Shown here in pieces: positions 1,276-19,227 of a stretch of 26,828 bases of DNA. The translations under genes were made by a program, and so were the position numbers. The notes below the pieces were generated by a model. The model saw only the letters and a list, made by a program, of their open reading frames with translations, was not told the origin of the DNA and did no database searches. The number at the start of each line of letters is the position of its first letter. Positions within the stretch are counted from its first letter, which is position 1. Origin of the DNA: Thermoprotei archaeon (GTDB taxonomy: Archaea; Thermoproteota; Thermoprotei; QMSL01; B3-G16); contig QMSL01000001.1 in the NCBI GenBank assembly GCA_003649665.1, positions 1-26,828 on the forward strand. The letters are read 5' to 3'.

Positions 1276-2582
1276 GCTTAAGGATTCCTTGGGCTGAGAA
1301 GTATAGACCTAAGCGATTAAATGAGATAATCGGAAATAGGAGGGCAGCCTTAGAGCTATACCGTTGGGTTCTTCAGTGGACTAAAGGTATTCCCGATAAG
1401 AAGGCAGCGCTCCTCTACGGTCCTCCAGGTACCGGGAAGACAACTGCTGTATACGCTGTAGCAAATGAACTTGGATATGAGGTCATAGAAATGAATGCTA
1501 GCGACCTACGTCGTGCTCAAGATATAGATCGCGTTATAGCAAGGGCTGTTAGCGTAGGCTCTCTCTTCGGAGCTAAAGGACGAATAATCCTTCTTGACGA
1601 GATAGACGGTATGAGTGGAACTGAGGATAGGGGTGGCCTCTCTGAGATACTCAGAGTAATAGAGGTAACTAGAGTTCCGATAGTCATGACCGCTAATGAT
1701 CCATGGGATCCCAAGTACAGACCTCTAAGGGATGTCTCAGTTCTCATAAGGTTTAACAGAGTTAATAAAAACATAGTAACGAAAATACTCCAGAACATAT
1801 GTATGAAAGAGGGGATAAAGGCCGATTTAAGTGCGCTGAGGTTAATAGCAGAGCTTTCTGAGGGTGACGTTCGTTCAGCTATAAACGACTTACAAGCGAT
1901 AGCTGAGGGTCGTAAAGTGGTAACTGTGGAGGATGTTAAAGCATTAATCGCAAAAAGGTATAGGGAGTACGATGCATTCACTGTACTAAAGCTCCTCTTC
2001 TCATCTAGAACTTCTGAACAGGCGAGAGCAGTTCTGAGTCAGTCCTCATTAGATTATAATGATCTAAAGGAGTGGATACATGAGAACCTTCCCTATCAAT
2101 ACTCTGATCCTGAAGAACTCGCTGAAGCCTATGATGCTTTAGCGAAAGCTGACGTCTATTTAGGTAGGATAGTCAAATCTCAGGACTGGGGCCTACTTAG
2201 CTATGCAATAGACATGATGACTGCTGGTGTTGCTATGGCTAGGAGACATCCCTACCACTTCGTAAAGTATAAATTCCCAAGCAGAATGCTAATTTTATCT
2301 AAGACTAAGGAAGTACGTCAGATAAGAGATAGAGTGCTTGAACGCATAGCTCGTAAGGCTCATATATCAAAACGAGGTGCAGCTACTGAGTATCTACCGT
2401 TCCTTCGTGTGATATTCCGTGCGAATCCTAAGATGGCGGCAGGAATAGCTAAGTGGCTTGAGCTTAACGAAGAGATGATAGAATACGTGGCGGGCGATAA
2501 GTCTATAGCTAAGAAGATAGTAGAATTCATAAAGCCTCAGGCTAAGACAAGGAGGAGAAGAACTCAAAGGACTCTGTTTTAG
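1272..2582 (+). CDS. rfcL: Replication factor C large subunit
   Basis: PWAEKYRP, GPPGTGKT, EMNASD, ILLDEIDG. Start set at ATG 1272, which overlaps the rfcS stop (ATGA); the track start at 1212 looks over-extended. Confidence 0.95.
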   Translation: MSLRIPWAEKYRPKRLNEIIGNRRAALELYRWVLQWTKGIPDKKAALLYGPPGTGKTTAVYAVANELGYEVIEMNASDLRRAQDIDRVIARAVSVGSLFGAKGRIILLDEIDGMSGTEDRGGLSEILRVIEVTRVPIVMTANDPWDPKYRPLRDVSVLIRFNRVNKNIVTKILQNICMKEGIKADLSALRLIAELSEGDVRSAINDLQAIAEGRKVVTVEDVKALIAKRYREYDAFTVLKLLFSSRTSEQARAVLSQSSLDYNDLKEWIHENLPYQYSDPEELAEAYDALAKADVYLGRIVKSQDWGLLSYAIDMMTAGVAMARRHPYHFVKYKFPSRMLILSKTKEVRQIRDRVLERIARKAHISKRGAATEYLPFLRVIFRANPKMAAGIAKWLELNEEMIEYVAGDKSIAKKIVEFIKPQAKTRRRRTQRTLF

Positions 2583-3381
2583 TACCGTAGGTGTAAGCAA
2601 CATCTAAAATTTCCTTACTTAATATTCCTCTAATGTATTTGATGCTTCTTAGGTCTACCTTGAAGTTAATATTATCATATGTTATATCCCATAATATAAG
2701 TCCCTCCGGTCTTGCAGGCTTTACTTCAAGCCTTATTTTCCTCTCGAGATGATATCTTAACTCATCTATATCAAGCTCTCCTCTGCCAACTGCTAATATA
2801 GCGCCTATTATCTTCCTTATCAAATATCGGTAGAAGCTACGTCCCCTTATCTCAAAGATGAGAAATTCTCCCTTCCTATTAACACTAATATATATCTCTC
2901 TTACACCACTCCTTCCTGAATCCGGTTTTGCCAAGAATTCATAATCATGTACTCCGCTTAACACATTGCATGCTATCTTAAGGCTTTCTATATCCTCACC
3001 TCGGTATGGAGAAACGTAGCGATATATGCGCATCCTTGCTTTGCGTCGTGGGTCAAAATTATTTGAAACGCGCGAAAATGCCCATAGCATTATGTTAGGC
3101 ATAATCCTTACATTTATCCACATAAGCCCCTCTTCCATCATTCGATCATAAACGGCCGCATCTGTATTAAATGCTATTACCTGCCCTATAGCGCTTACAC
3201 CCCTATCAGTCCTACTCGCGTATCCCCATCTTGCGCTTCTTAGATCATGAAATATCTTCATCTCAGTAAGGACTTCGATGAGTTTATTCTCTACTGTGTT
3301 ACCACCAGGTTGTCTCTGAAATCCATTGAAATATCGACCGTCATAATATACTTTAACTGCTACTCGTACTCTTCCTTTCAT
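2542..3381 (-). CDS. truA: tRNA pseudouridine(38-40) synthase
   Basis: YDGRYFNGFQRQP, ASRTDRGVSA with the catalytic Asp, GRSFYRYLIRKIIG, ARPEGLIL. Start is 3381 (ATG) or 3390 (TTG). Overlaps the rfcL 3' end convergently by 41 nt. Confidence 0.93.
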   Translation of the reverse strand: MKGRVRVAVKVYYDGRYFNGFQRQPGGNTVENKLIEVLTEMKIFHDLRSARWGYASRTDRGVSAIGQVIAFNTDAAVYDRMMEEGLMWINVRIMPNIMLWAFSRVSNNFDPRRKARMRIYRYVSPYRGEDIESLKIACNVLSGVHDYEFLAKPDSGRSGVREIYISVNRKGEFLIFEIRGRSFYRYLIRKIIGAILAVGRGELDIDELRYHLERKIRLEVKPARPEGLILWDITYDNINFKVDLRSIKYIRGILSKEILDVAYTYGTKTESFEFFSSLS

Positions 3382-3640
3382 ACTCCTCAAAGACCTTGAA
3401 GAGATTCTTTAATGCTTTAACCCTAGGATCATCTTCATTTATCCTAAATATTCTAATTCTTCCAAACCTCTTCTCCTCAACAAGTCCTGCTTTCTCTAGG
3501 CTTTTAAGATGAGAAACTGCTGTAGTATGATTTAACTCGGCCCTTTTAGCAAGCTCTGATATATTTAGCTCGCCCTTCTCGCATAATATTTTAAGGAGTC
3601 GTATGCGCCCACGTGAGGAGAGAACATCCTCCACTGGCAT
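3353..3640 (-). CDS. ArsR-like winged-helix DNA-binding protein
   Basis: SRGRIRLLKIL..GELNISELAKRAEL..TTAVSHLKSLEKAGLVEEKRFGRIRIF is a typical wHTH. Starts 3 nt after the cdc6 stop. Confidence 0.85.
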   Translation of the reverse strand: MPVEDVLSSRGRIRLLKILCEKGELNISELAKRAELNHTTAVSHLKSLEKAGLVEEKRFGRIRIFRINEDDPRVKALKNLFKVFEEYERKSTSSS

Positions 3641-3643
3641 GAA

Positions 3644-4864
3644 CTACCTCCTCCTCAAATACTCAACAAGGTGTTTTTCAAGAATTTTAGCAGGTACGTC
3701 TTGTAGACTTATAAGAGTCGTTTTTCCTCTATATCCAACTCCTGAGATCTCCGTCGCTATGATTCCAGCATTCCTAATGTTCTGAAGGTATTCCCATATC
3801 TGCGTATGTCTCCTTGGTCTTTCTCCCCATTCCTCGCATACTATTCTATATTCCTTCTCGACCATGCCGAAGGGCACCATAGCTTTCTCACTCTTTGCAA
3901 GACACCGTGCTATCGCTAAAAGTAATAACTTCTCATGTCTACTTAATCCCTCTATAAGCTCCATGCTTATTATAGGATGAGTATCCTGCTTGGCTTTACG
4001 TACATGTTCTAATGTTATCTTCTCCTTTCCTTCTTGCTCTGCATATTTCCCTGCTCTCCATAGGAGTTCTAATGCATATCTAGCATCTCCTGATCCTCCC
4101 TTATCAACTCCCGTTATCTCTGCGATTAGCTTAATTACTTCTATATCTAAGACTCCAGGGAGAAAAGCCTCTTTGGCTCTCTCGAAGAGAATATCAAATA
4201 TCTGAGATGACGTGTAAGGTGGGAATTTTATGACATTATGCATCATGGAGCTTGTTATACTCCTGTCTAAGAATTCAAAGACGGAGAGATCCCTTGATAT
4301 GAATATATAGCTGAACCTATGCTCTCCTTCTTCCTCTTCCTCTGTAATCCTAATTATATCGTATAGGACATCCTCACCAGATGATCTAATTAGGAAGTTT
4401 ACCTCATCTAGCGTGACTAAGAGGTACATGTTATTCTTCCTTAGATACTCCTTTATAACATGCATCATTTCATATGGCGATAACCCTCTCTTAGGAATTC
4501 CTGCAGAGAGTACATCTCCTATACGTTTAAGTATTAAGAAAAGCGTCCTATCCTTATGGCAATTTACGTGAACATATTTTAAGTTAACGCCCTTCTCTCT
4601 TGCTATCTTTTCAAAGAGGTATCCAAACCTCTTAGAGACTGCAGTCTTACCTGTACCAACATTCCCAACTATAATAACTTTCTGCGATATTATGCCTGGT
4701 GATTTAAGTATCACTCTGAATAGCCTTGCGAGAGCTCTTAACTGCTCTTCTCGATGAGGAAGCCTCTCTGGTACATAGTCTGGAAAGAGCTTACTCTCAT
4801 CCTTAAATATTCCAGATTTCTCAAATTCGTCCTTTATCATCTCGTACACGGATTCATCCTCCAT
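3644..4864 (-). CDS. cdc6: ORC1/Cdc6 replication initiator (Orc1-2-like by gene context)
   Basis: PDYVPERLPHREEQ, Walker A GNVGTGKT, Walker B LVTLDEV, GDARYALELL, C-terminal winged helix (GYRGKTTLI). Confidence 0.95.
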   Translation of the reverse strand: MEDESVYEMIKDEFEKSGIFKDESKLFPDYVPERLPHREEQLRALARLFRVILKSPGIISQKVIIVGNVGTGKTAVSKRFGYLFEKIAREKGVNLKYVHVNCHKDRTLFLILKRIGDVLSAGIPKRGLSPYEMMHVIKEYLRKNNMYLLVTLDEVNFLIRSSGEDVLYDIIRITEEEEEGEHRFSYIFISRDLSVFEFLDRSITSSMMHNVIKFPPYTSSQIFDILFERAKEAFLPGVLDIEVIKLIAEITGVDKGGSGDARYALELLWRAGKYAEQEGKEKITLEHVRKAKQDTHPIISMELIEGLSRHEKLLLLAIARCLAKSEKAMVPFGMVEKEYRIVCEEWGERPRRHTQIWEYLQNIRNAGIIATEISGVGYRGKTTLISLQDVPAKILEKHLVEYLRRR

Positions 4865-4956
4865 TTACTACATATCTTACGTTATTATCCTTAGCATTTA
4901 TAGGTTTCCTTCAGTTAAGGTTACTATTAGTAGAGAGAGGTGACCGAAAGTATTCT

Positions 4957-5514
4957 TCAATCTCTCAAATCCCACCTGGTCTTTTTCCTAAGCATCATAC
5001 ATCTCGGAAATACGCCTATTCCTATTGATTCATCCAATTCGTACAATATTACAACGAAATCCGGGTTACTTAAGCTAACTTTTAAATTACGTCCATGAAG
5101 GCGCCTCAATATTTCCTTACCTAAATACGCCTCTAATCTAGCAGAACCTACATTAAGTCTTCGAAAGTGCCCTTTACATCTAACCCGGAATGTGCAATTC
5201 TTTAACTTTTTCTCGGCTACTTTAACCACAGCGTTACTTAACTCCTTCAAGTCGCTTACATACGCTACCAAGTCCAGCGGAATTACATGGAATATCGTAG
5301 AGGTTATCCTTCCTTGTATCTCCTTCATAACTTTCTCTAACTTATCATCTGATGAAAGCTTAAGTAGAACAATTCCCCTACGAGATGTGGTATGTCTTGA
5401 AACATTCGGATCTATCGGAATTATGCAATCCAATGCCTCTTCATATGCGACCTTCTCCTTTCCTGGCTTCGTTGTTATTAGTATGAAAGGACCAGACAAT
5501 TGCTTATTATTCAT
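4957..5514 (-). CDS. THUMP domain RNA-binding protein
   Basis: LITTKPGKE at the N-terminus; TFRVRCK...LGKEI...KVSLSNPDFVV is a THUMP pattern. The frame is open from 5604, but a GAGGT ribosome-binding site at 5526-5522 favours ATG 5514 (or 5520). Confidence 0.8.
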   Translation of the reverse strand: MNNKQLSGPFILITTKPGKEKVAYEEALDCIIPIDPNVSRHTTSRRGIVLLKLSSDDKLEKVMKEIQGRITSTIFHVIPLDLVAYVSDLKELSNAVVKVAEKKLKNCTFRVRCKGHFRRLNVGSARLEAYLGKEILRRLHGRNLKVSLSNPDFVVILYELDESIGIGVFPRCMMLRKKTRWDLRD

Positions 5515-5694
5515 GATCATTACCTCATGATGTCGATATCTTTCCACTCTCCCTGTTTCTTTAATTATAGAACACACGCTTTCCATTACCTTCCTTATTT
5601 GCACTTAAGGTAATACCCTTTATTTTAAGTATTTTCTTTATCTAATCCCTTCTGCACTTGATCTATAGGAAAACTTGCTTCGAGGTTTTTGCCT

Positions 5695-6885
5695 ATGGAT
5701 GAAATAGATAAGCTCTTCGAGAAAGTCCTTGAGTCAAATATATTCAAAAACAGGGAAGCACTAAGGCCTGATCACGTACCTGATTACCTGCCTCATAGGG
5801 AGAGTCAAATAATGAAGCTTGCAAGCATAATAGCTCCTGCAATAAAGGGTGCTAGACCTTCAAATGTATTCATGTACGGAAAGCCAGGTACAGGAAAGAC
5901 TGCGGTAGCGAAATATGTACTTAGGAGATTAAAGGATAAAGTTAAGGATAGTGTGATTACAGCGTATATAAACTGTAGGGAAGCCGATACTAATTATAGG
6001 GTCTTAGCCGACCTATGCGCAGCAGTTAACGTCTATGTTCCATTTACTGGTCTTTCTACAGCCGAGGTTCTTAGACGTTTCATTAATGGTCTCGAATCTG
6101 AGGGTTGCCTTATGATAGCGGTACTTGACGAAATAGACGCTTTAGTGAAAAAGAGCGGTGATGCAATACTCTATCATTTAACAAGGATAAATGAGCGTTT
6201 AGTCAAGGCTAGGCTATCGATAATAGGAATAACGAACGATTTAAGACTTATGGAATACTTAGATCCTAGGGTTAAAAGTAGTCTAAGCGAGGAAGAAGTC
6301 GTATTTCCACCTTACACGTATGAGGAATTAAAGGATATACTTCAATCAAGAGCTGAGGAAGCATTTAATCCCGGAGTGCTGGAGGATGGAGTTATTCCCT
6401 TATGTGCTGCGATTGCTGCAAGAGAACATGGTGATGCCAGAAAAGCACTAGATCTCTTGAGAATAGCTGGTGAAATAGCTGAACGAAATGGTGATGCCAA
6501 GGTTACTGAACATCATGTGAGACTAGCTCAACGTGAGCTTGAACGCGACCATGTAGTAGACGTTATTAAGACGCTTCCTCTTCATGCTAGGTTAATATTG
6601 CTAGGCCTATACGTCCTCTCGAAAGATGGAAAAAGCACTGTAACAACAGGCGAACTATACGGAAAATATAGAGAACTATGTTCCAAGATAGGTGCAGATC
6701 CATTAACACAAAGGAGGATAAGCGACTTAATAGGAGAACTCGAGTTATTAGGCATAATAGATGCAAAAGTCATAAGTAGAGGACGTTATGGAAGAACTAG
6801 ACGAATAACCTTAGCCATTAGTAATAAAAGCTTAAAGGAAGGTCTTCTACAGAGCAATATAGCGTTAAGGGGCTTTATTGAATGA
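5695..6885 (+). CDS. cdc6: ORC1/Cdc6 replication initiator (Orc1-1-like)
   Basis: IFKNREAL.PDHVPDYLPHRE, GKPGTGKT, AVLDEID, GDARKALDLLR, SRGRYGRTR wing. GAGGT at 5682-5686; start is ATG 5695 or TTG 5689. Confidence 0.96.
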   Translation: MDEIDKLFEKVLESNIFKNREALRPDHVPDYLPHRESQIMKLASIIAPAIKGARPSNVFMYGKPGTGKTAVAKYVLRRLKDKVKDSVITAYINCREADTNYRVLADLCAAVNVYVPFTGLSTAEVLRRFINGLESEGCLMIAVLDEIDALVKKSGDAILYHLTRINERLVKARLSIIGITNDLRLMEYLDPRVKSSLSEEEVVFPPYTYEELKDILQSRAEEAFNPGVLEDGVIPLCAAIAAREHGDARKALDLLRIAGEIAERNGDAKVTEHHVRLAQRELERDHVVDVIKTLPLHARLILLGLYVLSKDGKSTVTTGELYGKYRELCSKIGADPLTQRRISDLIGELELLGIIDAKVISRGRYGRTRRITLAISNKSLKEGLLQSNIALRGFIE

Positions 6886-7457
6886 AAGTCTTAGGAGTAG
6901 AGGATGGTAGTTTTATACCAAGAGTCTCAAGGAAATGCCTTTTAGCGGGAGTGCTAATGGATGATTTAAGAATAGAGAATGTATTTATCAGAGTGATAAC
7001 TGTTGATGGGATGGATGTAACCGAAAAGGTATTGGACATTATTAAGGAATGTAAGGATGTTGATATTATCCTCTCCGGCGGCATTACTTTTGCTGGCTTT
7101 AATGTACTTAATCCATTTAAGATATACGAGGAAACTAACGTTCCCGTGATTATAATTTCGAGGAAGAGACCTAACAATAAGGCTGTATATAGAGCATTGG
7201 TAAGGCATTTCGAGGATTGGCGTATTAGATGGTCTATCATAAACAGGTTAGGCGAACCAGTACCTGTACTAAATTGGAGAGATGGAGTTACGCTTTATAT
7301 TGAACTAGTTGGAATAGGTCTGGAGAACGCTCTGGAAATAGTTGATTCATTAACTTTATGGGGGAAGAGGCCTGAACCACTACGCGTAGCAAGTTTAATA
7401 GCTAAAGGACTAAGCAGGATTATGGAAGTTAAGAACGCTAGTTCTCATATCGCTTAA
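6882..7457 (+). CDS. DUF99 family protein (endonuclease V-like fold)
   Basis: VLGVEDG, VDGMDVT, GITFAGFNV, and a C-terminal PEPLRVASLIA that resembles EndoV PEPxRxA. ATGA overlap with the cdc6 stop. Confidence 0.85.
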   Translation: MKVLGVEDGSFIPRVSRKCLLAGVLMDDLRIENVFIRVITVDGMDVTEKVLDIIKECKDVDIILSGGITFAGFNVLNPFKIYEETNVPVIIISRKRPNNKAVYRALVRHFEDWRIRWSIINRLGEPVPVLNWRDGVTLYIELVGIGLENALEIVDSLTLWGKRPEPLRVASLIAKGLSRIMEVKNASSHIA

Positions 7458-8672
7458 TCTAACGACTGCTACCACTCCTGGAGTTGGCTCAATACCCATA
7501 GTTCTCTGATATGCTGTTTGTCCTTGCCAAGTTCCAGTATTTACAAGCAATATTCCTTTATAACTACCAACTCCATATACATGAACATGACCCATGTGAA
7601 AGACATGTGGGGCCTCATCAATAACTAAGAAGTCTTTATCCAATGGTATTATTGGAGTTTTACCTCCATATATGGGAGCCAAATGTCTTACTTTAAGTAA
7701 ATGTCTCATAGATTTGATAATGCCTTCCTGACTAAAAGAGGCGCCTGGTAGTGCGGAAATTATATCGTCTAAGCTCCTACCATGTGAGATGAGGAACTTA
7801 ACTCCATGGAGCTCTATGAAGAGAGGATCACCAAATACGTGAACATTCGGCATCTCATAAAGTGGCTCTGCGTATTCCCTAAAGATAGTCACGTAGGGAA
7901 CTGCATGTACTGTAGCATCATGATTACCGGGGATAACAATTATCTCTATATGGTCTGGTATCTCGCTCAAGAATGCGGAAAGGGTCTCATATTGCTTGTA
8001 CAGCGAGCTTAACAGAAGTTCCTTATCCTGCCCAGGATATATGCCAACACCATCCACTAAGTCTCCCGCGATTATGATATACTTCACGGTATCCACTAAA
8101 TCTCTTGCCACGTCCACCTCGCCTTTAAGCCATTTTATGAAATGTCTGAACGATTTTTCGAAAAACATTTTACTTCCAACGTGCAGGTCAGAGATCAACA
8201 CTACGCTTAGATCAGGTACATCATGAGGACGTGGAGGCGCCTTTATATCCGGGAATATTATATCTTCTGCATATAATGTGCCATTTTTCATACGCCCCTC
8301 TATACCGATGCATGAATCATTTAATACATCCATAGCTTTAACGAAGGCCCTTGATGCATTCGTTACCACTACATCTACCATCCCCGTCTCATCTTCTAGC
8401 GTAAGCACTATTGCACTCTTACCTAATACTCGCTTATCGTATACTAGCCCCACTATCTTAACGTGCTCTCCTTCTCTCTTAGCTTCGGCTATGCTTCGTA
8501 CATCGTACATATCACCACGTCCCAACATTATCCTCCTTAATGTTCTGAGCCTATCAAGGAAGTATTCCCTAAATCCATCAACAGAGGCCTTAACTACTAT
8601 GTCCTGCTGTGGGCATTTTAGAACCCTTATCTCCTCCTCGTATTCTGATGCCTTGGGGATCAACCTCATCAC
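7410..8672 (-). CDS. DNA polymerase II (PolD) small subunit DP1, N-terminally short
   Basis: OB fold (VKIVGLV..LEDETG) followed by calcineurin-like phosphoesterase motifs SDLH, GDLVDG, PGNHD, SHG, GHVH; also RHLAPIYG and NTGTWQGQT. An in-frame TAG at 8699-8697 rules out a longer N-terminus. Confidence 0.92.
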   Translation of the reverse strand: MMRLIPKASEYEEEIRVLKCPQQDIVVKASVDGFREYFLDRLRTLRRIMLGRGDMYDVRSIAEAKREGEHVKIVGLVYDKRVLGKSAIVLTLEDETGMVDVVVTNASRAFVKAMDVLNDSCIGIEGRMKNGTLYAEDIIFPDIKAPPRPHDVPDLSVVLISDLHVGSKMFFEKSFRHFIKWLKGEVDVARDLVDTVKYIIIAGDLVDGVGIYPGQDKELLLSSLYKQYETLSAFLSEIPDHIEIIVIPGNHDATVHAVPYVTIFREYAEPLYEMPNVHVFGDPLFIELHGVKFLISHGRSLDDIISALPGASFSQEGIIKSMRHLLKVRHLAPIYGGKTPIIPLDKDFLVIDEAPHVFHMGHVHVYGVGSYKGILLVNTGTWQGQTAYQRTMGIEPTPGVVAVVRLSDMRTSVLNFHNPA

Positions 8673-9217
8673 CTTGGTAATATTAATGTTCCATCTCTAG
8701 CTCGAACCTCTCTATAATTGTTCGTATAATAGAGATATGCTGTTAATGCGGCAAGAATTGCATCTCTCTCATCTTTACTAAGACGTCTCCTCGAAAACTT
8801 AATGCTATATAACCTCATTATCTCTAGGAGATCAACCTTACCAAACTTTTTCATAAGAACTTTTAATGTTGATCTGGGATGAACTTCAATTACTCTAATC
8901 CCCGCCTCCTCTAGGAAACTCTTTAATTTTATACCTCTCTCAGTTAGCCTTCTCATCCCGGGAAATAATGGAGGAAGTACTGGAAGACCAAGCTTATGCA
9001 TGAATTTATCCACCTCTCTTAAATAACCCTCACGAGGCATTGTCAGCGGTGCATCTATAGCAACAATCAAGGGTTTAGGAGTAACAGTTATTTTAACTAT
9101 TTCTTCATCATCATATACCTTTACGACTCGAAGGGTCATACTCTGGCAATCGATCTCGGCAATCCCAGTAGGTCTCTTAGCAGAACCTGCTAAATCTATC
9201 CCTACTAATCTTACCAT
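8669..9217 (-). CDS. DUF429 family predicted RNase H-fold nuclease
   Basis: GIDLAG, AIDAPL, IEVHP, DAILAAL acidic motifs. AAGGAG site favours ATG 9217 (or 9223). The stop overlaps the DP1 start (GTGA). Confidence 0.82.
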   Translation of the reverse strand: MVRLVGIDLAGSAKRPTGIAEIDCQSMTLRVVKVYDDEEIVKITVTPKPLIVAIDAPLTMPREGYLREVDKFMHKLGLPVLPPLFPGMRRLTERGIKLKSFLEEAGIRVIEVHPRSTLKVLMKKFGKVDLLEIMRLYSIKFSRRRLSKDERDAILAALTAYLYYTNNYREVRARDGTLILPR

Positions 9218-9301
9218 ATTCATCTCCTTAACGTGCAATGAACTTTTTTACTAACGTTAAACTCTTTCAGTTATTCTCGGTAAAAATGTGAGAGGATTAA
9301 G

Positions 9302-9309
9302 TTTAAATG
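9302..9309 (+). promoter_or_regulatory. Candidate TATA box for speD-speE
   Basis: TTTAAATG in the divergent spacer upstream of speD. Confidence 0.5.
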
Positions 9310-9324
9310 CTTAGTCGTGTAGAT

Positions 9325-9357
9325 ATGTGCGAAAACGGCCGGGGGCGGGCATCATGA
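9325..9357 (+). other. Candidate 10-codon upstream ORF (MCENGRGRAS) overlapping the speD start
   Basis: ATG TGC GAA AAC GGC CGG GGG CGG GCA TCA TGA. The TGA (9355-9357) overlaps the speD ATG (9354-9356). Whether it is transcribed is uncertain. Confidence 0.3.
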
Positions 9358-9731
9358 GGGGGGCTCGTGAATTAGGTAGACATATCATAGCTGAATTTAT
9401 AGGATGTCCACGAGAGATATTAGACGATGTAGAGCTATTAAGAAACCTCCTCATCGAGGCAGCGAATAGAGCAGGCTCTCAGGTTGTTACTGAGACCTTC
9501 TTCAAGTTCAGACCACAAGGTGTCAGCGGCGTTGTAGTTATTAAGGAATCTCACCTCTCAGTACACACTTGGCCAGAGTATGGCTACGCCGCCATTGATA
9601 TATTTACGTGTGGAAGCAATGTCGACCCATGGAAAGCTTATGGCTTTTTAAGAGAGCGCTTAAAGCCCTCTCATGTCTCCGTTATAGAAGTTAGAAGAGG
9701 TGTTGATGTTGGAGGGAAGCAGCGCCAATAA
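9354..9731 (+). CDS. speD: S-adenosylmethionine decarboxylase proenzyme (pyruvoyl-dependent)
   Basis: LGRHIIAEF, GVSGVVVIKESHLSVHTWPEYGYAAIDIFTCG with the E|SH self-cleavage site. It is adjacent to spermidine synthase. The arginine decarboxylase paralog cannot be fully excluded. Confidence 0.88.
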   Translation: MRGARELGRHIIAEFIGCPREILDDVELLRNLLIEAANRAGSQVVTETFFKFRPQGVSGVVVIKESHLSVHTWPEYGYAAIDIFTCGSNVDPWKAYGFLRERLKPSHVSVIEVRRGVDVGGKQRQ

Positions 9732-10650
9732 TGATGGCTCTCGTTGGCGCGTGATCATGGAGACAGTGACCCCCGCCCTTAAGCTAGTGTACTTTATAAG
9801 GAAAGTTATCTATTCAGGAAGGACAAGATTTCAGGAAGTCGACATAGTAGATATCAGTGATTTTGGGAAGACATTATTTATTGACGGTAAGTTACAATCC
9901 TCAGTCAATTGGGAGTGGACATACCATGAATCCTTAGTACATCCCGTAATGATCACCCATCCAAACCCAAAACGCGTACTTATAATAGGTGGTGGGGAAG
10001 GCGCTACGTTAAGGGAAGTGCTAAGACATAATACAGTAGATGAGGCTATAATGGTTGACTTAGACGATGAGATTATAGATATTTGTAAGAAGTTCCTCCC
10101 AGAATTACATCAGGGATCTTTTGATGACCCACGTGCAAGACTATACATTTCGGATGGAAGGAAATTCCTTGAGGAGCAAAGTGAGGGCTCATACGATGTG
10201 ATAATCGTAGATCTCACAGATCCCTTAAAAGGCACTCCATCCGTATACTTATATACATTAGAATTCTATAAGCTCATCTTTAGGGCATTAACCCCTGATG
10301 GTCTATTCGTAACTCAGGCTACATCCATTACGCATACCCCCGACATAGTTGCTTCAATCCATAAGACTGTGGCAAACGTCTTTCCTATTGCTAGGATTTA
10401 TCATGCCTGGATCCCATGTTTTAGCGCCCTATGGGGCTTCGTAGTCGGTTCAAAGAAGTACGATCCCGCAATGTTAGCCCGTGAGGAGATAGCTTCTCGC
10501 ATTAGGGAAAGGAACCTCTCAGGCAAGCTTAAATTCTATGACGAGATCATTCATGAAGCTATGTTCCATTTACCAAAGTATATAAAGGAGTGCTTAGTCA
10601 ATAAGGGAAGGATATCGACGGATAGTGATCCCGTATGCCTATTAGAATAA
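9706..10650 (+). CDS. speE: Polyamine aminopropyltransferase (spermidine synthase)
   Basis: YHESLVHP, VLIIGGGEGATLRE, VDLD, DGRKFL, YDVIIVDLTDP. Start uncertain (9700, 9706 or 9709). Confidence 0.94.
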   Translation: MLEGSSANNDGSRWRVIMETVTPALKLVYFIRKVIYSGRTRFQEVDIVDISDFGKTLFIDGKLQSSVNWEWTYHESLVHPVMITHPNPKRVLIIGGGEGATLREVLRHNTVDEAIMVDLDDEIIDICKKFLPELHQGSFDDPRARLYISDGRKFLEEQSEGSYDVIIVDLTDPLKGTPSVYLYTLEFYKLIFRALTPDGLFVTQATSITHTPDIVASIHKTVANVFPIARIYHAWIPCFSALWGFVVGSKKYDPAMLAREEIASRIRERNLSGKLKFYDEIIHEAMFHLPKYIKECLVNKGRISTDSDPVCLLE

Positions 10651-10699
10651 AGCTTATCACCCCCAACTTAGCTATTTTATTTGGCTCTGGTTACATTAT

Positions 10700-10816
10700 G
10701 CCGGGGTGGCCGAGCCAGGACTAAGGCGCCGGCCTCGAGATCCGAAACCTCCATTGGGGCTAGAAAGCCGGTGCCCCCCTCGGGGCGCGCGGGTTCAAAT
10801 CCCGCCCCCGGCGCCA
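10700..10816 (+). tRNA. tRNA-Ser(CGA) with 26-nt intron at 37/38 (10740-10765), CCA encoded
   Basis: Acceptor stem GCCGGGG/CCCCGGC, G73, CCA. Anticodon stem CCGGC/GCCGG with CGA at 10736-10738. Long variable arm GCCCC/GGGGC, T-loop TTCAAAT, BHB-like fold. Confidence 0.95.
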
Positions 10817-10831
10817 TGAGGTGCTCCTCAT

Positions 10832-11263
10832 ATGTCTAGTAAGGAATTCGAATACTTAGAACACACCGCTGATGTCTACATAGTTGCTTACGGTAAGGAC
10901 TTAAACGAGGCATTTGAAAACGCTGCAAAGGCAATGTTTAATGTGATGACCGACATTGATAAGGTGGTTCCATCTGTAAAGAGGGAGATAAACGCAGAAG
11001 GCGTTGATTTAGAACAACTCCTTTATAACTGGTTAGAGAATCTTCTTATACTCTTCGATACCGATGGCCTTGTCTTCTCTAGATTTAAAGTCAGTATCCA
11101 GAAGAAGGATGATCATTATGTGCTAAAGGGCGAGGCCTGGGGAGAACCATTTAATCCCAGCAAACATCCCTCAAAGACTGAGGTAAAGGCGGTAACGTAC
11201 TCCCTCATGGAAATCCATGATGAGAAAGGGAACTCGTATGTGAAATTCGTTCTCGACATTTAG
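10832..11263 (+). CDS. Archease (RtcB activator)
   Basis: FEYLEHTADV at the N-terminus and EVKAVTY..FVLDI at the C-terminus. Lies upstream of rtcB. Confidence 0.95.
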   Translation: MSSKEFEYLEHTADVYIVAYGKDLNEAFENAAKAMFNVMTDIDKVVPSVKREINAEGVDLEQLLYNWLENLLILFDTDGLVFSRFKVSIQKKDDHYVLKGEAWGEPFNPSKHPSKTEVKAVTYSLMEIHDEKGNSYVKFVLDI

Positions 11264-11300
11264 TTCCATTGGAGTTGTCACGGGATTAAAAATTTAAACC

Positions 11301-11314
11301 ACCTATGAATAGGT
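11301..11314. promoter_or_regulatory. Inverted repeat ACCTAT-GA-ATAGGT next to the candidate rtcB TATA box
   Basis: Perfect 6-bp arms, 2 nt downstream of TTTAAA (11293-11298) and 17 nt before the rtcB ATG. Confidence 0.4.
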
Positions 11315-11331
11315 TAATCTAGGTTTTGAAT

Positions 11332-12780
11332 ATGGTCCCTCCATTAAAGAGAATCTCTGAATTCGTATGGGAGATCCCGCAGAAGTATAAGCGAGAAATG
11401 AGAGTTCCAGCTAGGATATTCTCCGATGAAGTACTATTAGAGAAGATGAAGAGCGATCTAACCCTTGAGCAAGCCGCTAACGTAGCCTGCTTACCCGGCA
11501 TCTATAAATACTCTATAGTCTTACCTGATGGTCACCAAGGCTATGGCTTCCCAATAGGAGGCGTTGCTGCGATAGACTATGAAGAGGGCGTTGTTAGTCC
11601 TGGCGGTGTTGGTTATGACATAAACTGCGGTGTCCGTCTCCTAAGGACTGACTTAAGTTATGAGGACGTAAAGCCGAAGATAAAGGAGTTAATAAATACG
11701 CTATTTAGAATGGTTCCATCAGGTCTTGGTTCTAGAAGCCACCTTAGACTAAGCTATGGCGAACTTGACGAGGTACTAGCCTCAGGAGTAGAGTGGGCTG
11801 TTGCTCATGGCTATGGATGGGAAGAGGATCTTGATAGAATAGAAGAACGAGGAAGCATGAAGCTTGCTGATCCCGATAAGGTATCTGACACTGCTAAACG
11901 AAGGGGAAGCGCACAGCTAGGAACTCTTGGAAGTGGTAATCACTTCTTAGAGGTACAGGTTGTAGACAAAATATACAATCCGGAAGTCGCTAAGGTGTTT
12001 GGAATAACGCATGAAGGTCAAATAACCGTAATGATACATACTGGAAGCAGGGGCTTAGGTCATCAGGTATGTAGCGATTACTTAAGGATAATGGAACGTG
12101 CTGTGAGAAAATACGGTATAAGACTACCTGATAGAGAGTTAGCTGCTGTACCTGTAAAGAGCAAAGAAGGAGAGGACTATCTTGCCGCAATGGCTGCTGC
12201 CGCAAACTTCGCATGGACTAACAGGCAAATGATAATGCATTGGGTTAGAGAGGCATTTAGAAAAGTATTTGGTCAATCTCCAGAAGATCTTGGAATGCAT
12301 CTAGTATACGATGTAGCTCACAATATTGCTAAGATAGAGGAACATACAATAGATGGTGGAACCAGGAAAGTAGTAGTTCATAGAAAAGGAGCTACAAGAG
12401 CGTTCCCAAGAGGGCATCCAGCAATACCCGCTATTTATCGTAGCGTTGGTCAACCGGTCCTAATTCCCGGAAGCATGGGCACAGCCTCATGGGTTCTCGT
12501 AGGTACTGAAGCTGCTATGAAAATAACATTTGGCTCTACAGCACATGGTGCCGGTAGGTACTTAAGTAGAGCTGCAGCTGTAAGAACATGGAGACCTAGG
12601 GATGTCGCAGCAGAACTTGAGAGAAAAGGCGTAGTGCTTCGTGCTGCAAACGCTAGAGTCATAGCAGAAGAAGCACCCGGTGCTTATAAGGATGTTGATC
12701 GTGTAGTGGAGGTATCCCATAGAGTCGGGATAGCAACTAAGGTTGCAAGGTTAGTACCAATAGGCGTAACTAAAGGTTAA
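11332..12780 (+). CDS. rtcB: tRNA-splicing ligase RtcB
   Basis: [73 protein letters not shown]. No intein. Confidence 0.98.
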
Positions 12781-12849
12781 ACTCTACTTAAGACGAAGTT
12801 TTTAACTATCACGTTCTTTAAACGTCCTTCGTTTTGAGCAGTTATCCTA

Positions 12850-13464
12850 CTATCTAGATGCGGCTGCTATACGCTCTATCTCGTCCTTCTGCCTTATCGC
12901 ATAGCTCTTTGGATCGTTATTAGCAGCTAGGATTATCTCTTCAGCTAAGCACTCCTCTATGGACTTAGGATTACTAAACGCCGCCATTTTAGCTCCTTCT
13001 GCTATGAACCTAAGAGCAAGATCTACACGCCTTTGAGGAGAGACATCTACAGCTACGTGATAGACTATACCACCGTAAGCTATCCTAGTAGTCTCCTCAC
13101 GAGGAGCGGCATTCTGAATTGCGTCTACCAGAACCTGTATTGGGTTCTTTCCTGTCCTTAAGTATATTATATCGAATGCTTTCTTCACTATATTATATGC
13201 TAAGTGCTTCTTTCCAGTGTTCCTACCTCCCCTCATGAGCTTATTTATTAGCCTCTCTACTATATTGACTTCTGCCTTCCCAAAACGCTTCTTTGCATGT
13301 CTTCCTCCACTATGTGGAAGGTATACTGGCTTTAAGCATATGTACTTCTTAAGCCCTGGATCCCTTACTTCAATTCCTTCCCAATCCCATTTTCCAAAGA
13401 GCTTTATCCCCTTCCCCTTTAATAGCTTATATTTTTCCTCCTCTACGACGCTTCCCTCGCTCAT
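12850..13464 (-). CDS. rps7: Ribosomal protein uS7
   Basis: [66 protein letters not shown]. Confidence 0.98.
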
Positions 13465-13537
13465 AAGGGACGCCTTCTAGTATGAACTATGTAAATTAAA
13501 TATAAAGCTTCCGTCATATTTAATAGCGGGGGTTCAA

Positions 13538-14488
13538 GTGGATGTCATATGCGTTGGAGAGATAGTCGTTGACTTCATACCGATTGATGACTTCACGTAT
13601 AAGGCCTGTTTTGGCGGTGCACCTATGAATTGTGCAATTGCATGTTCTAAATTAGGACTTAAGGTTGGCGCTATAACTGCCGTGGGAAATGATGCGTTTG
13701 GTAGGTTCTTGATCAATACCTTGAATGAACATGGCGTAGATACATCTCATGTGAAGATAATTAAAGGTACTAGAACGACATTAGCATTTGTTGTAAAGTT
13801 ACCTGGTGGTGAGCGTGAATTCTTCTTTTATAGGAAGCCATGGAGCCTTAGTGCCGATACGGAGTTAAAGCTAACTGATTCTGACGTAGAGTATCTAAGA
13901 CGTGCCAAGGTAGTCCACATATCTGGTTTTGCTTTATCTCAAGAACCATCTCGTTCTGAGATACTTAACATCCTCCCTAAACTCAAGGCCCATAACGTAT
14001 TACTTTCCCTAGATCCAACGTTTAGGATTGATGTATGGGATAGTAAGGAAGAGGCAAGGGAGACGTATAATGAAGTTCTAAAATACGTCGATATATTACT
14101 GGCCACGCTTAAGGAATATTCCCTGCTATTTGAAACGAGCGATATAGGCGAGTGCATAAGGTCTGCTAGCAAAACTGGTATTAAGATCATTGGAATAAAA
14201 ATGGGTGAGAAAGGAGCTGTGCTGTCCAATGGTGATAAGGCCTTCTTCATGAAAGCGTATAAGGTTCCCGTAAAGGATACTGTAGGAGCAGGCGACGCCT
14301 GGAACGCTGGTATCCTCTATAGCTTAATAAGGAAGCTATCCTTAGATCATTCGTTGAAAATAGCAAATGCCGTTGCAGCGATAAAATGCATGCACATAGG
14401 AGCGATAGCAGGCCTACCCACAATCGATGAAGTTGAAAGATTCATTGAGCTTCACAGAGAGAACGTTCCTGAACAATTTCCCTTATAA
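13538..14488 (+). CDS. PfkB-family carbohydrate kinase (substrate unknown)
   Basis: GEIVVDF, GGAPMNCA, AVGNDAFG, DTVGAGDAWNAG anion-hole motif, ANAVAA. Confidence 0.92.
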   Translation: MDVICVGEIVVDFIPIDDFTYKACFGGAPMNCAIACSKLGLKVGAITAVGNDAFGRFLINTLNEHGVDTSHVKIIKGTRTTLAFVVKLPGGEREFFFYRKPWSLSADTELKLTDSDVEYLRRAKVVHISGFALSQEPSRSEILNILPKLKAHNVLLSLDPTFRIDVWDSKEEARETYNEVLKYVDILLATLKEYSLLFETSDIGECIRSASKTGIKIIGIKMGEKGAVLSNGDKAFFMKAYKVPVKDTVGAGDAWNAGILYSLIRKLSLDHSLKIANAVAAIKCMHIGAIAGLPTIDEVERFIELHRENVPEQFPL

Positions 14489-15453: not shown

Positions 15454-16722
15454 TTAAATCTCCACTCCAACTATTACGAAGTCACTATTAAATTCTGGCG
15501 TTTGGAAAATGGTCGTACTTCCCTCCTCTATTATGTCTGGTTTAAATACCCTTCTTGTTTCTAACTCTAAACCCAGCCACTTATAAGAGCCTGCTTCAAG
15601 CCTTAACTTTATCCTCCAAGCATAGGGAACGTAAACCACTACCTTTCCCTTACCTATAGCAACCCTAATCTCATCTGTCTCATTAAGTAAAATCTCGTTT
15701 GAAGGCTTTATATCGAAGAGGTCATATTCCTCGAATAGGCGCTTAGCTAAAGCCGCATCATTTGCTCCCGGGAACTTTAATGCAGTCCTCCAATCAAAAG
15801 AAGGTCCGGCAAATCCCTCTCCAAAGAACTTAGCCCCCCTCCTATGCCAATTCCAAATGCCATTAGCACCATATGCAACTCCAGCCTTAGCTCCAGAAAG
15901 CAAGCTTTGCCATATGGCCTTCCTGACGTTAAACCTATCATGTCTATAGTATCTTCCTCCAGCAAGCCCCTCATAGCATGGCTCGCCATTAATAATAGGC
16001 CTCTTAATAGGCATTTTGTAAAACCTCTGGGCAAGTTCATATGGGCGTACTTTACCGTTATGACCAGATTGAAACATATAGAAGTCATAATACGGGGACT
16101 CAACTATTCTACTAGGAAGCTGCCACAAGCCGCCGGCTAAATGCATTGTAGTTAAACAGCTTGTGCATTTCCTCTTGATTATTTCCAATGCCTTTAAATA
16201 ATATTCCTCCGCTTCAGGAGATTCAAAATTAGTATCACCACTTATTATGAATATGGGATTATACTTACCAAACCTCTCAGCCACATACTCAACATAACTT
16301 TCTAAACACTCCCTAGGAATGATCCTACGGGGCTTAATAAGTCTAGATCCCCATGTGCCAGGTACGTAATTGCACCAAAGCACAACTAAAGCTGGAACAA
16401 ATCCTTTATCTACGGCGATGTCAACCATTTTCTCAGCACGATCAAAGTATTCTTCATTAACTTTACCAAAATCCCAATCACCATTAGGCTTAACAATAAA
16501 GGGATCAATGTAGTAAGGCGACTTGCTTCTATCATGCTGTGGAAGGATATTAATCTGCAGTACATCAAAACCCTGTGACGCCCTGTAATCAAGGTAATAA
16601 TTCCATTCTTCAAACGATACATTCGTAAACGCGCTCCAACAAGTATCAGCAAGATAGAAGAATCTCTCACCATCTCTCAAGAAGTAATCTCGCGTATCTG
16701 AAATAACTAGTTCCCCAGACAT
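15454..16722 (-). CDS. DUF4038 / GH140-like (apiosidase-like) glycoside hydrolase with C-terminal beta domain
   Basis: RDGERFFYLADTCW, YLDYRASQGFDVLQ, ISGDT, FQSGH, PIINGEPCYE, VRKAIWQSLLSGA, YGANGIW. No signal peptide evident. Confidence 0.8.
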   Translation of the reverse strand: MSGELVISDTRDYFLRDGERFFYLADTCWSAFTNVSFEEWNYYLDYRASQGFDVLQINILPQHDRSKSPYYIDPFIVKPNGDWDFGKVNEEYFDRAEKMVDIAVDKGFVPALVVLWCNYVPGTWGSRLIKPRRIIPRECLESYVEYVAERFGKYNPIFIISGDTNFESPEAEEYYLKALEIIKRKCTSCLTTMHLAGGLWQLPSRIVESPYYDFYMFQSGHNGKVRPYELAQRFYKMPIKRPIINGEPCYEGLAGGRYYRHDRFNVRKAIWQSLLSGAKAGVAYGANGIWNWHRRGAKFFGEGFAGPSFDWRTALKFPGANDAALAKRLFEEYDLFDIKPSNEILLNETDEIRVAIGKGKVVVYVPYAWRIKLRLEAGSYKWLGLELETRRVFKPDIIEEGSTTIFQTPEFNSDFVIVGVEI

Positions 16723-16944
16723 ATACCAGATATATAATGCAAAACTTTAATTAACTTAACGTCCGTCACAAAGCTCACTAAAAGCTATATTCTCAAAACG
16801 TTAAAGTTGAGCTCATGAGAATAAATAGTGCCCATAGCTATAGTATGCACGATCCATATAATTAGACATATAATCTCATAAAAATCCCACATGACGAAAG
16901 TGCATGTCATTACGATACCACGAGCTTAGGAAAAAGATTAAACT

Positions 16945-17907: not shown

Positions 17908-18002
17908 TGGCGGGCCGGCCGGGATTTGAACCCGGGACCGCCGGGTTAAGAGCCCGGCGCTCTAGGTGGCGGCTCGCCTCTACCTGGCTGAGCTACCGGC
18001 CC
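17908..18002 (-). tRNA. tRNA-Lys(CTT) with 18-nt non-canonical intron at 22/23 (17979-17962), CCA encoded
   Basis: Minus strand reads GGGCCGGTAGCTCAGCCAGGTAG[AGGCGAGCCGCCACCTAG]AGCGCCGGGCTCTTAACCCGGCGGTCCCGGGTTCAAATCCCGGCCGGCCCGCCA. Anticodon CTT at 17950-17948. AGGT/ACCT helix flanked by two AGA bulges. Confidence 0.93.
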
Positions 18003-19132: not shown

Positions 19133-19227
19133 GCCGGGGTAGCTTAGCCTGGTAGAGCGCCGGACTCATAAAGCCATTAAGGCATGTAATCCGGAGGTCC
19201 CGGGTTCAAATCCCGGCCCCGGCACCA
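19133..19227 (+). tRNA. tRNA-Met(CAT), elongator type, with 18-nt anticodon-loop intron, CCA encoded
   Basis: Acceptor GCCGGGG/CCCCGGC (G1-C72, so not the initiator). Anticodon stem CCGGA/TCCGG with CAT at 19167-19169. Intron is 19171-19188 (37/38) or 19172-19189 (38/39). Ile2 identity is less likely but not formally excluded. Confidence 0.9.

Follow-up and report, generated by a model that had tools for sequence, protein, structure and literature searches.

The window (the whole stretch of DNA analysed, 26,828 nt) holds a tRNA-Ser(CGA) gene that lies downstream of speE and is followed on the same strand by the genes for archease and for RtcB (Table 1). RtcB is the tRNA-splicing ligase, and archease is its helper protein, which sets the turnover rate of the ligase.

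Rfam tRNA model RF00005 matched 10700-10813 along its full length (model positions 1-71), with 41.8 bits against a gathering score of 29; the alignment carried a 29-nt insert in the anticodon loop and a 14-nt insert representing the long variable arm of a class II tRNA. Default ARAGORN missed this gene, and introns had to be allowed (-i) for tRNA-Ser(CGA) to be called; direct reading places the anticodon CGA at 10736-10738, the discriminator G at 10813 and an encoded CCA at 10814-10816. ARAGORN -i mistyped several intron-rich tRNA-Ser genes as Trp, Cys or Gly; the true type was taken from the acceptor stem and anticodon, and calls were cross-checked by a T-loop motif scan and Rfam. The gene is the sole Ser(CGA) found in this metagenome-assembled genome (MAG), and its exons are near-identical in two relatives. 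Its intron keeps its ends, with an interior of varying length, in L003 and L004. Drawn by hand, the intron would adopt a relaxed bulge-helix-bulge (BHB) fold with three of the four central-helix pairs (one mismatch) and an enlarged 5' bulge; RNAalifold applied to three orthologous pre-tRNAs recovered neither the cloverleaf nor the BHB, owing to GC-rich mispairing. Such introns are common in this organism, occurring in 19 of its 40 tRNAs, and the genome encodes two EndA subunits and an RNase Z (274.9 bits; gene cut by a contig end).

The archease product matched PF01951 over profile positions 1-136 (E 6.8e-51) and PDB entries 1JW3 and 4N2P (E ~1e-31 each). Its start is fixed at the ATG at 10832, since an in-frame TGA at 10817-10819 rules out a longer N-terminus, and the N-terminus lines up with those of 13 homologues. 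In the homologue alignment D14 is invariant and D142 nearly so, making these candidate metal-binding carboxylates. RtcB matched PF01139 (E 9.5e-184) and, over its full length, Pyrococcus horikoshii RtcB (1UC2, E 2.8e-221), retains the motifs of the active-site Cys and the guanylylated His (DINCGVR and HGAGR) and is 92.8% identical to the RtcB of a same-genus relative; we start it at the ATG at 11332, with the TTG (11326) of the ORF list in frame 6 nt upstream. Rfam, ARAGORN -i, PF01951 and direct reading together confirmed what a previous sequence-only reading had reported, namely an intron-containing pre-tRNA whose CCA ends at 10816 and an archease ATG at 10832, which leaves 15 nt between A76 of the tRNA and the start codon.

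Table 1. Features of the tRNA-Ser(CGA)-archease-rtcB locus (window positions)
Feature	Positions	Strand	Basis or remark
BRE/TATA-like motif AAAGCTTATCAC, proposed tRNA-archease promoter	10649..10660	+	matrix score 8.8
tRNA-Ser(CGA)	10700..10816	+	Rfam RF00005, ARAGORN -i
tRNA intron, 26 nt, canonical position 37/38	10740..10765	+	boundaries +/-1 (flanking A residues)
Hairpin AUGAGG-UGCU-CCUCAU, 6 bp, 4-nt loop	10816..10831	+	minimum free energy (MFE) structure
Shine-Dalgarno (SD) site UGAGGUG	10817..10823	+	GGUG starts at -12 from archease ATG
Archease, 143 aa	10832..11263	+	PF01951, PDB matches, alignment
BRE/TATA motif AAAATTTAAACC (consensus), putative rtcB promoter	11289..11300	+	matrix score 10.1
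rtcB, tRNA-splicing ligase, 482 aa	11332..12780	+	PF01139, 1UC2 match

Promoter, terminator and Shine-Dalgarno signals

Promoters were sought with a BRE/TATA weight matrix trained on the promoters of 31 other tRNA genes in the genome (consensus AAAGCTTAAATC; motif start between -57 and -33). The motif proposed to drive the tRNA (genome tail 3.8e-4) precedes the tRNA 5' end by 51 nt and shares bases with the stop codon of speE. From the tRNA start to the archease ATG (10700-10831) the best score was only -2.1, and after the tRNA there is no TTT in the following 25 nt, while 25 of 37 tRNAs of the genome have TTT within that distance downstream; the sole T4 run in 10817-12800 is at 11324. The earlier claim that tRNA and archease leave no room for a promoter or terminator therefore held, and with neither room nor signal for either between the two genes, the tRNA is most likely the 5' part of the archease transcript.

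For rtcB the picture differs. The motif 32-43 nt before its ATG is the top match within 10591-11345 (genome tail 1.5e-4), and a TTTAAA-type box stands at the equivalent place before rtcB in four relatives (L033, L004, L006 and L005). By these motifs rtcB appears to have its own conserved consensus promoter, so that archease and rtcB need not be one operon, and the tRNA would lead archease, not necessarily both ligase genes. The suggestion that the pre-tRNA serves as 5' leader of its own splicing-ligase genes survives for archease, where the DNA makes it the most likely arrangement, and need not extend to rtcB.

The archease SD site sits where this genome prefers it: the GGUG begins at -12 and SD 4-mers peak genome-wide at -11/-12. 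SD sites in the genome mark operon-internal genes, SD-like motifs preceding 44% of the ORFs that have a same-strand gene within 25 nt upstream, compared with 9-17% of other ORFs. Tight packing behind a tRNA is not the default: of the 1040 ORFs in the genome, just 2 lie within 40 nt of a tRNA that runs the same way. A search of the MAG for the 16S rRNA 3' end found model positions 4-828 of the rRNA and no 3'-end match, and the anti-SD pairing assumed here is taken from what archaeal 16S 3' ends generally look like and from the SD statistics of the genome. The 16S fragment has 67.6% GC against 40% for the genome, and the organism, an archaeon of hot vents, is a probable hyperthermophile, its growth range being judged from 16S GC.

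From the gene identities, the geometry, the distribution of promoter and terminator motifs, the SD statistics and the conservation described below, we infer a transcript and its cleavage sites as follows: probably, tRNA-Ser(CGA) and archease form a tRNA-mRNA transcription unit in which archease is read from the tRNA promoter. RNA polymerase would start at the BRE/TATA promoter ~40-50 nt upstream of the tRNA, pass the tRNA, meet no T-rich stop signal and go on into archease, with read-through extending some way into rtcB in addition to initiation at the promoter of rtcB itself. RNase P would cut the tRNA free at its 5' end, and RNase Z, or an activity related to it, at or just after its 3' end; EndA and RtcB/archease would splice out the intron, as in the intron-bearing half or so of the organism's tRNAs. 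The freed archease mRNA would have a leader of 15-18 nt that presents a strong SD almost at once, and would be translated like an operon-internal cistron. Coupling of this kind would be feed-forward, archease synthesis following tRNA-gene transcription, and would not amount to a feedback sensor. Taken with the wider enrichment of tRNA genes beside archease (below), it suggests a simple, hard-wired answer to the problem of matching the archease level to the load of intron-bearing pre-tRNA, namely that the cofactor uses tRNA promoters.

Conservation of the tRNA-archease layout

Conservation of the adjacency had been put forward as a check, and its outcome was positive: in at least seven other lineages archease follows closely behind a same-strand tRNA-Ser. 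The spacer, measured from the discriminator base, is 16-35 nt in G002, G039, G033, G031, L087 and L111 and 47 nt in L042, and each of these seven loci has an SD-like motif and lacks T5. In these loci the best promoter motif lies at -34 to -59 from the tRNA; at the long-spacer loci L039 and L110 a motif is present inside the spacer instead. The complete order speH-speE-tRNA-Ser(CGA)-archease-rtcB is found again in G002, which belongs to another genus, and a same-genus MAG has speE-tRNA-Ser ... archease-rtcB-S7. The pairing also occurs with no rtcB adjacent (L042, L087, L104 and L111), and the upstream tRNA-Ser is intronless in L007, L042 and L110. In two relatives, one of the same genus and one of the same order, a reverse-strand gene has been inserted between tRNA-Ser and archease, which shows that tight coupling is dispensable; in both, an AT-rich region of its own precedes archease.

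Across thermophilic archaea, adjacent tRNA genes are ~27-fold enriched at archease, whichever way they face. Among the papers on archease and RtcB covered by our search, including PMC3973293 and PMC4604427, none mentions tRNA genes neighbouring archease; we found no earlier report of the enrichment, and our literature search returned no archaeal tRNA-archease transcript. One may tentatively go further and suppose, as a possibility that we regard as doubtful, that thermophilic archaea systematically tie the expression of archease to tRNA genes, either by read-through from a tRNA-Ser promoter, with tRNA 3' processing setting the mRNA 5' end, or by a promoter region that also serves a divergent tRNA. 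The amount of RtcB cofactor would then rise and fall with the production of pre-tRNA, and at the present locus the SD hairpin would add a dependence on temperature or on tRNA release.

The hairpin and other readings of the locus

The 6-bp hairpin over the SD that the sequence-only reading had described is real. It is the MFE structure of the region (-6.5 to -7.3 kcal/mol at 37 C, z about -3.5), and sequences folding as well were obtained in 0 of 200 dinucleotide and 4 of 300 mononucleotide shuffles. The 5' arm contains the GAGG of the SD and the loop its UG, such that A76 and the SD pair with an anti-SD-like CCUCAU. Predicted stability falls from -2.6 kcal/mol at 60 C through about -1.0 at 70 C to +0.7 at 80 C, for a predicted melting near 75-80 C. 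Ten other tRNA-Ser-to-archease spacers contained no counterpart and no fold better than shuffles (z -0.4 to +1.5), so the stem covariation that had been proposed as a check was not found. The hairpin thus appears from the comparison to be a recent, genome-specific addition, which at most would dampen translation slightly, in a temperature-dependent way, or give the 5' end some protection.

It is unlikely, in our judgement, that the co-transcript carries this hairpin as a lineage-specific functional add-on, whether as an RNA thermometer that lowers archease translation below the growth temperature or as a stem that shields the 5'-monophosphate mRNA from 5'-3' exonucleases. The 3' arm mimics an anti-SD, the stem would stand at the very start of the processed mRNA, the melting point predicted for it could be near the growth range, and the sequence is invariant in four metagenome runs; yet all of this comes from a single genome with no covariation, relatives do without the hairpin, and 6 bp can arise by drift when one arm is the SD in a 15-nt spacer. 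ROSE and fourU elements are SD-sequestering RNA thermometers of bacteria, and the present hairpin is like them in that an anti-SD-like strand is predicted to pair with the SD immediately ahead of the start codon, and in its predicted temperature-dependent melting. It differs from them in its short stem, in having neither conservation nor covariation and in its archaeal, hyperthermophilic setting.

Archaeal promoters can be weak or atypical, and a cryptic start may lie inside the GC-rich 3' half of the tRNA. Archease could then have a promoter hidden within the tRNA gene, for example in the T-loop ~35 nt before the ATG, and a separate short-leader mRNA, with the adjacency a matter of tight packing only; we think this quite unlikely. 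The T-loop TTCAAAT (10794-10800) is the sole A/T-rich patch upstream and would put the start near 10821-10825, and compact independent promoters do exist, the 30-nt spacer from a tRNA-Leu to an m5C methyltransferase-like gene on C4 containing a TTTAAATA box. The genome's own matrix, however, gives the T-loop -3.8, every tRNA has such a sequence, a start at ~10823 would leave a well-placed SD unused, and the combination of SD and short spacer is seen again in lineages with 16-26 nt spacers.

The sequence-only reading had further proposed that archease translation may be gated in a substrate-sensing feedback loop, by the hairpin and by whether the pre-tRNA still joined to it has folded, been spliced or had its 3' end processed. 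We consider such gating very unlikely. A hairpin that takes in A76 and most of the SD is improbable by chance in a 21-nt stretch, the tRNA does contain an intron, and an SD that begins 1 nt after the tRNA could leave ribosome binding hindered by unprocessed tRNA. Against this, the hairpin is unconserved and, in a probable hyperthermophile, would have barely favourable free energy at 70 C and a positive one at 80 C; the intron is missing from the tRNA-Ser of three relatives and, at the frequency of introns in this genome, would be expected by chance about half the time. Furthermore, rtcB is under its own putative promoter, the layout is broken by the insertions in two relatives, and no element connects intron removal, 50-90 nt upstream, to the SD.

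Finally, an assembly artefact that joined speE and the tRNA 5' part to a tRNA 3' end and archease from a different locus, through shared tRNA-Ser sequence, is extremely unlikely: public k-mer contigs from four metagenome runs, compared over 10400-11600, do break at 10776-10817, a stretch shared by many community contigs, and none bridges the whole tRNA, but contigs of runs X1, X2 and X4 cross the spacer, running from 10788/10789 in the tRNA 3' end as far as archease, the 23-nt overlap has the same T-loop variant, depths match on both sides in X1-X3 (in X4 depth falls from 7.8 to 2.7-6.7 on the side of archease), the gene orders in G002 and the same-genus MAG agree, and even in an artefact the tRNA 3' end would adjoin archease.

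Comparison with known systems

Co-transcripts of tRNA and mRNA are already known in all three domains, and the tRNA-archease unit would thus be a modest advance, not a new principle. The classical bacterial case is the Escherichia coli tufB operon, thrU-tyrU-glyT-thrT-tufB, which likewise places tRNA and a translation-related protein gene under one promoter, frees the mRNA by tRNA processing and makes expression follow tRNA and growth-rate control. It differs in being bacterial, with a sigma-70 promoter, RNase E/P processing, four tRNAs and no introns, and in that EF-Tu is not a tRNA-maturation factor. In mitochondrial tRNA punctuation, too, the cuts by which RNase P and RNase Z release a tRNA decide where the next mRNA begins; such mRNAs have practically no leader (0-3 nt), whereas archease here would keep a 15-nt leader with a canonical SD and so be SD-led. 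The locus offers a clean archaeal test case for RNase Z/RNase P processing that makes a translatable, SD-led mRNA.

A precedent among archaea comes from Thermococcus kodakarensis, where a tRNA-Lys (TKt3) lies inside the 159-nt 5' UTR of TK0306, encoding a DEAD-box RNA helicase (Jager et al. 2014, PMC4247193). There, as is proposed here, an archaeal hyperthermophile has a tRNA within the leader of a gene for RNA metabolism, between transcription start and start codon, and the two are apparently co-transcribed; the tRNA and the protein are different, the start site was mapped in that case while ours is predicted from DNA, and the report describes no cross-lineage conservation, SD logic or hairpin. 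Processing of the kind proposed is on record in Haloferax, in which functional RNAs with tRNA-like elements on either side are set free by RNase P and tRNase Z (PMC4946936). The archease-rtcB pair has been described as a 'tRNA splicing operon' with archease as RtcB cofactor (Desai et al. 2014, PMC3973293; 2015, PMC4604427), and the same two genes are adjacent in the same order here; the difference is that rtcB in the lineage studied here appears to carry its own consensus promoter.

Gene order and expression signals

The sequence-only reading of an intron-bearing tRNA-Ser whose encoded CCA ends shortly before an archease ATG was confirmed by Rfam, ARAGORN, PF01951 and direct reading. The archease start is set by an in-frame TGA (10817-10819) and by alignment to 13 homologues, and RtcB aligns to P. 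horikoshii RtcB along its full length. Upstream of the tRNA lie speH and speE; downstream of rtcB, on the opposite strand, lies the gene for ribosomal protein S7.

Features of the tRNA-Ser, archease and rtcB locus
Feature	Position	Strand	Basis or value
tRNA	10700-10813	+	Rfam, 41.8 bits; 29-nt anticodon-loop insert
tRNA-Ser(CGA)	10700-10816	+	ARAGORN with introns allowed
Anticodon	10736-10738	+	direct reading
tRNA intron, 26 nt, position 37/38	10740-10765	+	direct reading
Discriminator G	10813	+	direct reading
Encoded CCA	10814-10816	+	direct reading
Hairpin	10816-10831	+	-6.5 to -7.3 kcal/mol at 37 C
Archease	ATG 10832	+	PF01951, E 6.8e-51
RtcB	ATG 11332 to 12780	+	PF01139, E 9.5e-184

Public k-mer contigs from four metagenome runs (X1-X4) end within 10776-10817, the T-arm and acceptor 3' strand, where summed k-mer depth rises more than 100-fold (from about 15-70 to 340-13,850) because this sequence is common to many community tRNAs; tRNA sequence shared across the organisms of a sample thus breaks contigs at tRNA genes in such MAGs. 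Contigs of X1, X2 and X4 starting at 10788/10789 hold the tRNA 3' end, spacer and archease on one piece, depth is equal on either side of the break in X1-X3, and another genus (G002) has the same speH-speE-tRNA-Ser(CGA)-archease-rtcB order. On this evidence the tRNA-archease join is taken as genuine.

A 12-nt promoter matrix was built from the sequences preceding the 31 other usable tRNA genes in the same genome; its consensus, AAAGCTTAAATC, is a BRE plus TATA box that begins 33-57 nt ahead of the mature tRNA 5' end. In the + strand from 10591 to 11345 the top match (11289-11300, score 10.1) lies 32-43 nt before the rtcB ATG, with a box at the matching position in four related loci (L033, L004, L006 and L005), and the second-best (10649-10660, score 8.8) lies 51 nt before the tRNA. 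No promoter motif was found within the tRNA and spacer (matrix maximum -2.1; T-loop -3.8). TTT, mostly in a TTTCT-like tract, occurs within 25 nt downstream of 25 of the genome's 37 tRNAs, and is absent from the 25 nt after tRNA-Ser(CGA); the sole T4 run anywhere from the tRNA through rtcB is at 11324. We therefore place one promoter ahead of the tRNA and give rtcB a consensus promoter of its own; between the tRNA and archease, where the sequence-only reading saw no room for a promoter or terminator, no signal resembling either is present.

SD-like 4-mers in this genome are sharply peaked at -11/-12, and the GGUG of the archease leader begins at -12. Such motifs precede 44% of ORFs lying 25 nt or less behind a same-strand ORF, versus 9-17% in other contexts. 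Since its SD is at the preferred position and SD motifs mark operon-internal ORFs, archease looks like an operon-internal cistron with the tRNA as its upstream "gene".

tRNA genes beside archease in other archaea

Among 30 relatives' loci and 80 named loci, tRNA-archease adjacency held up as a conserved feature, with a same-strand tRNA-Ser closely upstream in G002, G039, G033, G031, L042, L087, L111, L039, L047, L104 (labelled Odinarchaeota) and L110 (Hadarchaeales). In all such co-directional tRNAs the acceptor reads GCCGGGG...CCCCGGC-G and the anticodon (CGA, GGA or UGA) is one for Ser; on these two traits we assigned identity, overriding ARAGORN typing. Short spacers, counted from the discriminator base (L111, 16 nt; own genome, 18; L087, 20; L008, 24; L013, 25; L007, 26; L004, 35), lack T5 and carry an SD-like motif 5-9 nt ahead of the start, with the best promoter motif 34-59 nt before the tRNA; L042 follows this pattern with a 47-nt spacer (best motif at -37 from the tRNA). 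In L039 and L110, whose spacers are long, a promoter-like motif lies within the spacer. This two-state pattern is a prediction of co-transcription.

In two relatives an unrelated reverse-strand gene separates tRNA-Ser from archease, which then has its own AT-rich upstream region: a 329-aa gene of no obvious family after tRNA-Ser(CGA) in the same-genus MAG AUK080 (L032 1270-2259 (-)), and, in G004 (L005 831-1241 (-)), a winged-helix regulator-like gene of 136 aa. Insertions may occur preferentially at the 3' flank of the tRNA. On these comparative grounds the coupling is old but dispensable.

In the 80 named loci the 200 nt before archease contain 27 copies of the tRNA T-loop motif, a density of 1.75 per kb; the 200 nt behind archease have 0.70 per kb, the rest of the loci 0.062 and the source genome 0.028. 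A tRNA within 200 nt upstream is about 27-fold enriched at archease, a count to be read with the phylogenetic non-independence of these loci in mind (L032-L111, from thermophilic Thermoproteota and some other archaea, with archease at about position 2500 in most). Of the 1040 ORFs in the source genome, 14 (1.3%) have a tRNA that close upstream. Within 260 nt upstream, nine of the 76 loci with sufficient flank have a co-directional tRNA, always tRNA-Ser in the named loci, and 19 a divergent one. ARAGORN types the divergent tRNAs as, among others, Leu, Gly(GCC), Arg(CCT), Pro, Ser(UGA) and, in Desulfurococcales, Gly(TCC); Rfam confirms the Gly(TCC), Arg, Pro and Ser(UGA) loci, several intron-rich ones being unconfirmed. 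The stretch right behind archease often has a tRNA gene as well: in Desulfurococcales it is tRNA-Phe, and a convergent tRNA begins 1-4 nt past the archease stop in L040, L097 and L105. Such varied identities and orientations imply that the adjacency arose repeatedly. The archease literature searched mentions only protein-coding neighbours and no tRNA genes. In L060, a Methanomethylicia MAG, the region immediately upstream of archease carries, on the other strand (1908-2234 (-)), the SRP RNA gene and a tRNA-like gene.

Probable co-transcript with tRNA excision, and the hairpin

These sequence comparisons make a single tRNA-archease transcript with tRNA excision most likely. Transcription would run from the tRNA promoter through the tRNA into archease, and the tRNA would be cut out; the genome has genes for RNase Z and two EndA subunits. 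Because 38 of the 40 tRNA genes detected encode CCA, 3' cleavage would be expected at or after A76, where Thermotoga RNase Z is reported to cleave, giving an mRNA that would begin at about 10814-10817 with its SD at the extreme 5' end. Mitochondrial punctuation and the tufB operon of E. coli set precedents for such a tRNA-linked mRNA. So does T. kodakarensis TK0306, whose 5' UTR contains tRNA-Lys (PMC4247193). A further precedent comes from Haloferax, where RNAs flanked by tRNA-like elements are freed by RNase P and tRNase Z (PMC4946936). The locus is a real and apparently undescribed case of a known kind, the tRNA-mRNA unit, with good comparative support, its transcript being one that we infer.

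It had also been proposed that the hairpin, or splicing or processing of the tRNA, gates archease translation as a substrate-sensing loop. The hairpin is real, folding better than all 200 dinucleotide shuffles, but gating is not supported. Of 10 other tRNA-Ser-archease spacers, none outperforms its shuffled versions in folding (z -0.4 to +1.5), and by this comparison the hairpin is private to the source genome. The hairpin's predicted dG rises from -2.6 at 60 C through -1.0 at 70 C to +0.7 at 80 C, with melting expected near 75-80 C, and the host appears to live hot: rRNA GC is linked to growth temperature, and a 16S fragment of 67.6% GC in a 40% GC genome points to a hyperthermophile. Introns occur in 19 of the host's 40 tRNAs (ARAGORN -i), and the upstream tRNA-Ser is intronless in L007, L042 and L110, with non-canonical introns elsewhere. 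The insertions in AUK080 and G004 likewise count against gating.

Source genome

The MAG is 1.4 Mb and 86% complete. Metagenomes sharing sampled words of the window are from sediment, hydrothermal vents and seawater, and the closest named relatives are uncultured Thermoprotei of vent-field origin. The MAG's sole 16S piece is a 639-nt 5' fragment at a contig end (C64 6897-7535), too short for its model span (positions 4-828), which suggests an internal gap or unusual structure. All three tRNAs in the window (10700-10816, 17911-18002 (-) and 19133-19224) bear introns.

Elsewhere in the genome, tRNA-Ser(TGA) on C11 (992-1080 (+)) is followed after 34 nt by an ORF at 1115, a 320-aa biotin-protein-ligase-like gene with an SD-like GAAGGTGGA ahead, and the pair may form a second tRNA-Ser-led mRNA. 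Pyrococcus archease is a known partner of a NOL1/NOP2/Sun-type RNA m5C methyltransferase. On C4 a 389-aa ORF whose product, judged by eye, looks like this type of enzyme begins 30 nt after tRNA-Leu(CAG) (16620-16724 (-)), with a TTTAAATA box in the spacer.
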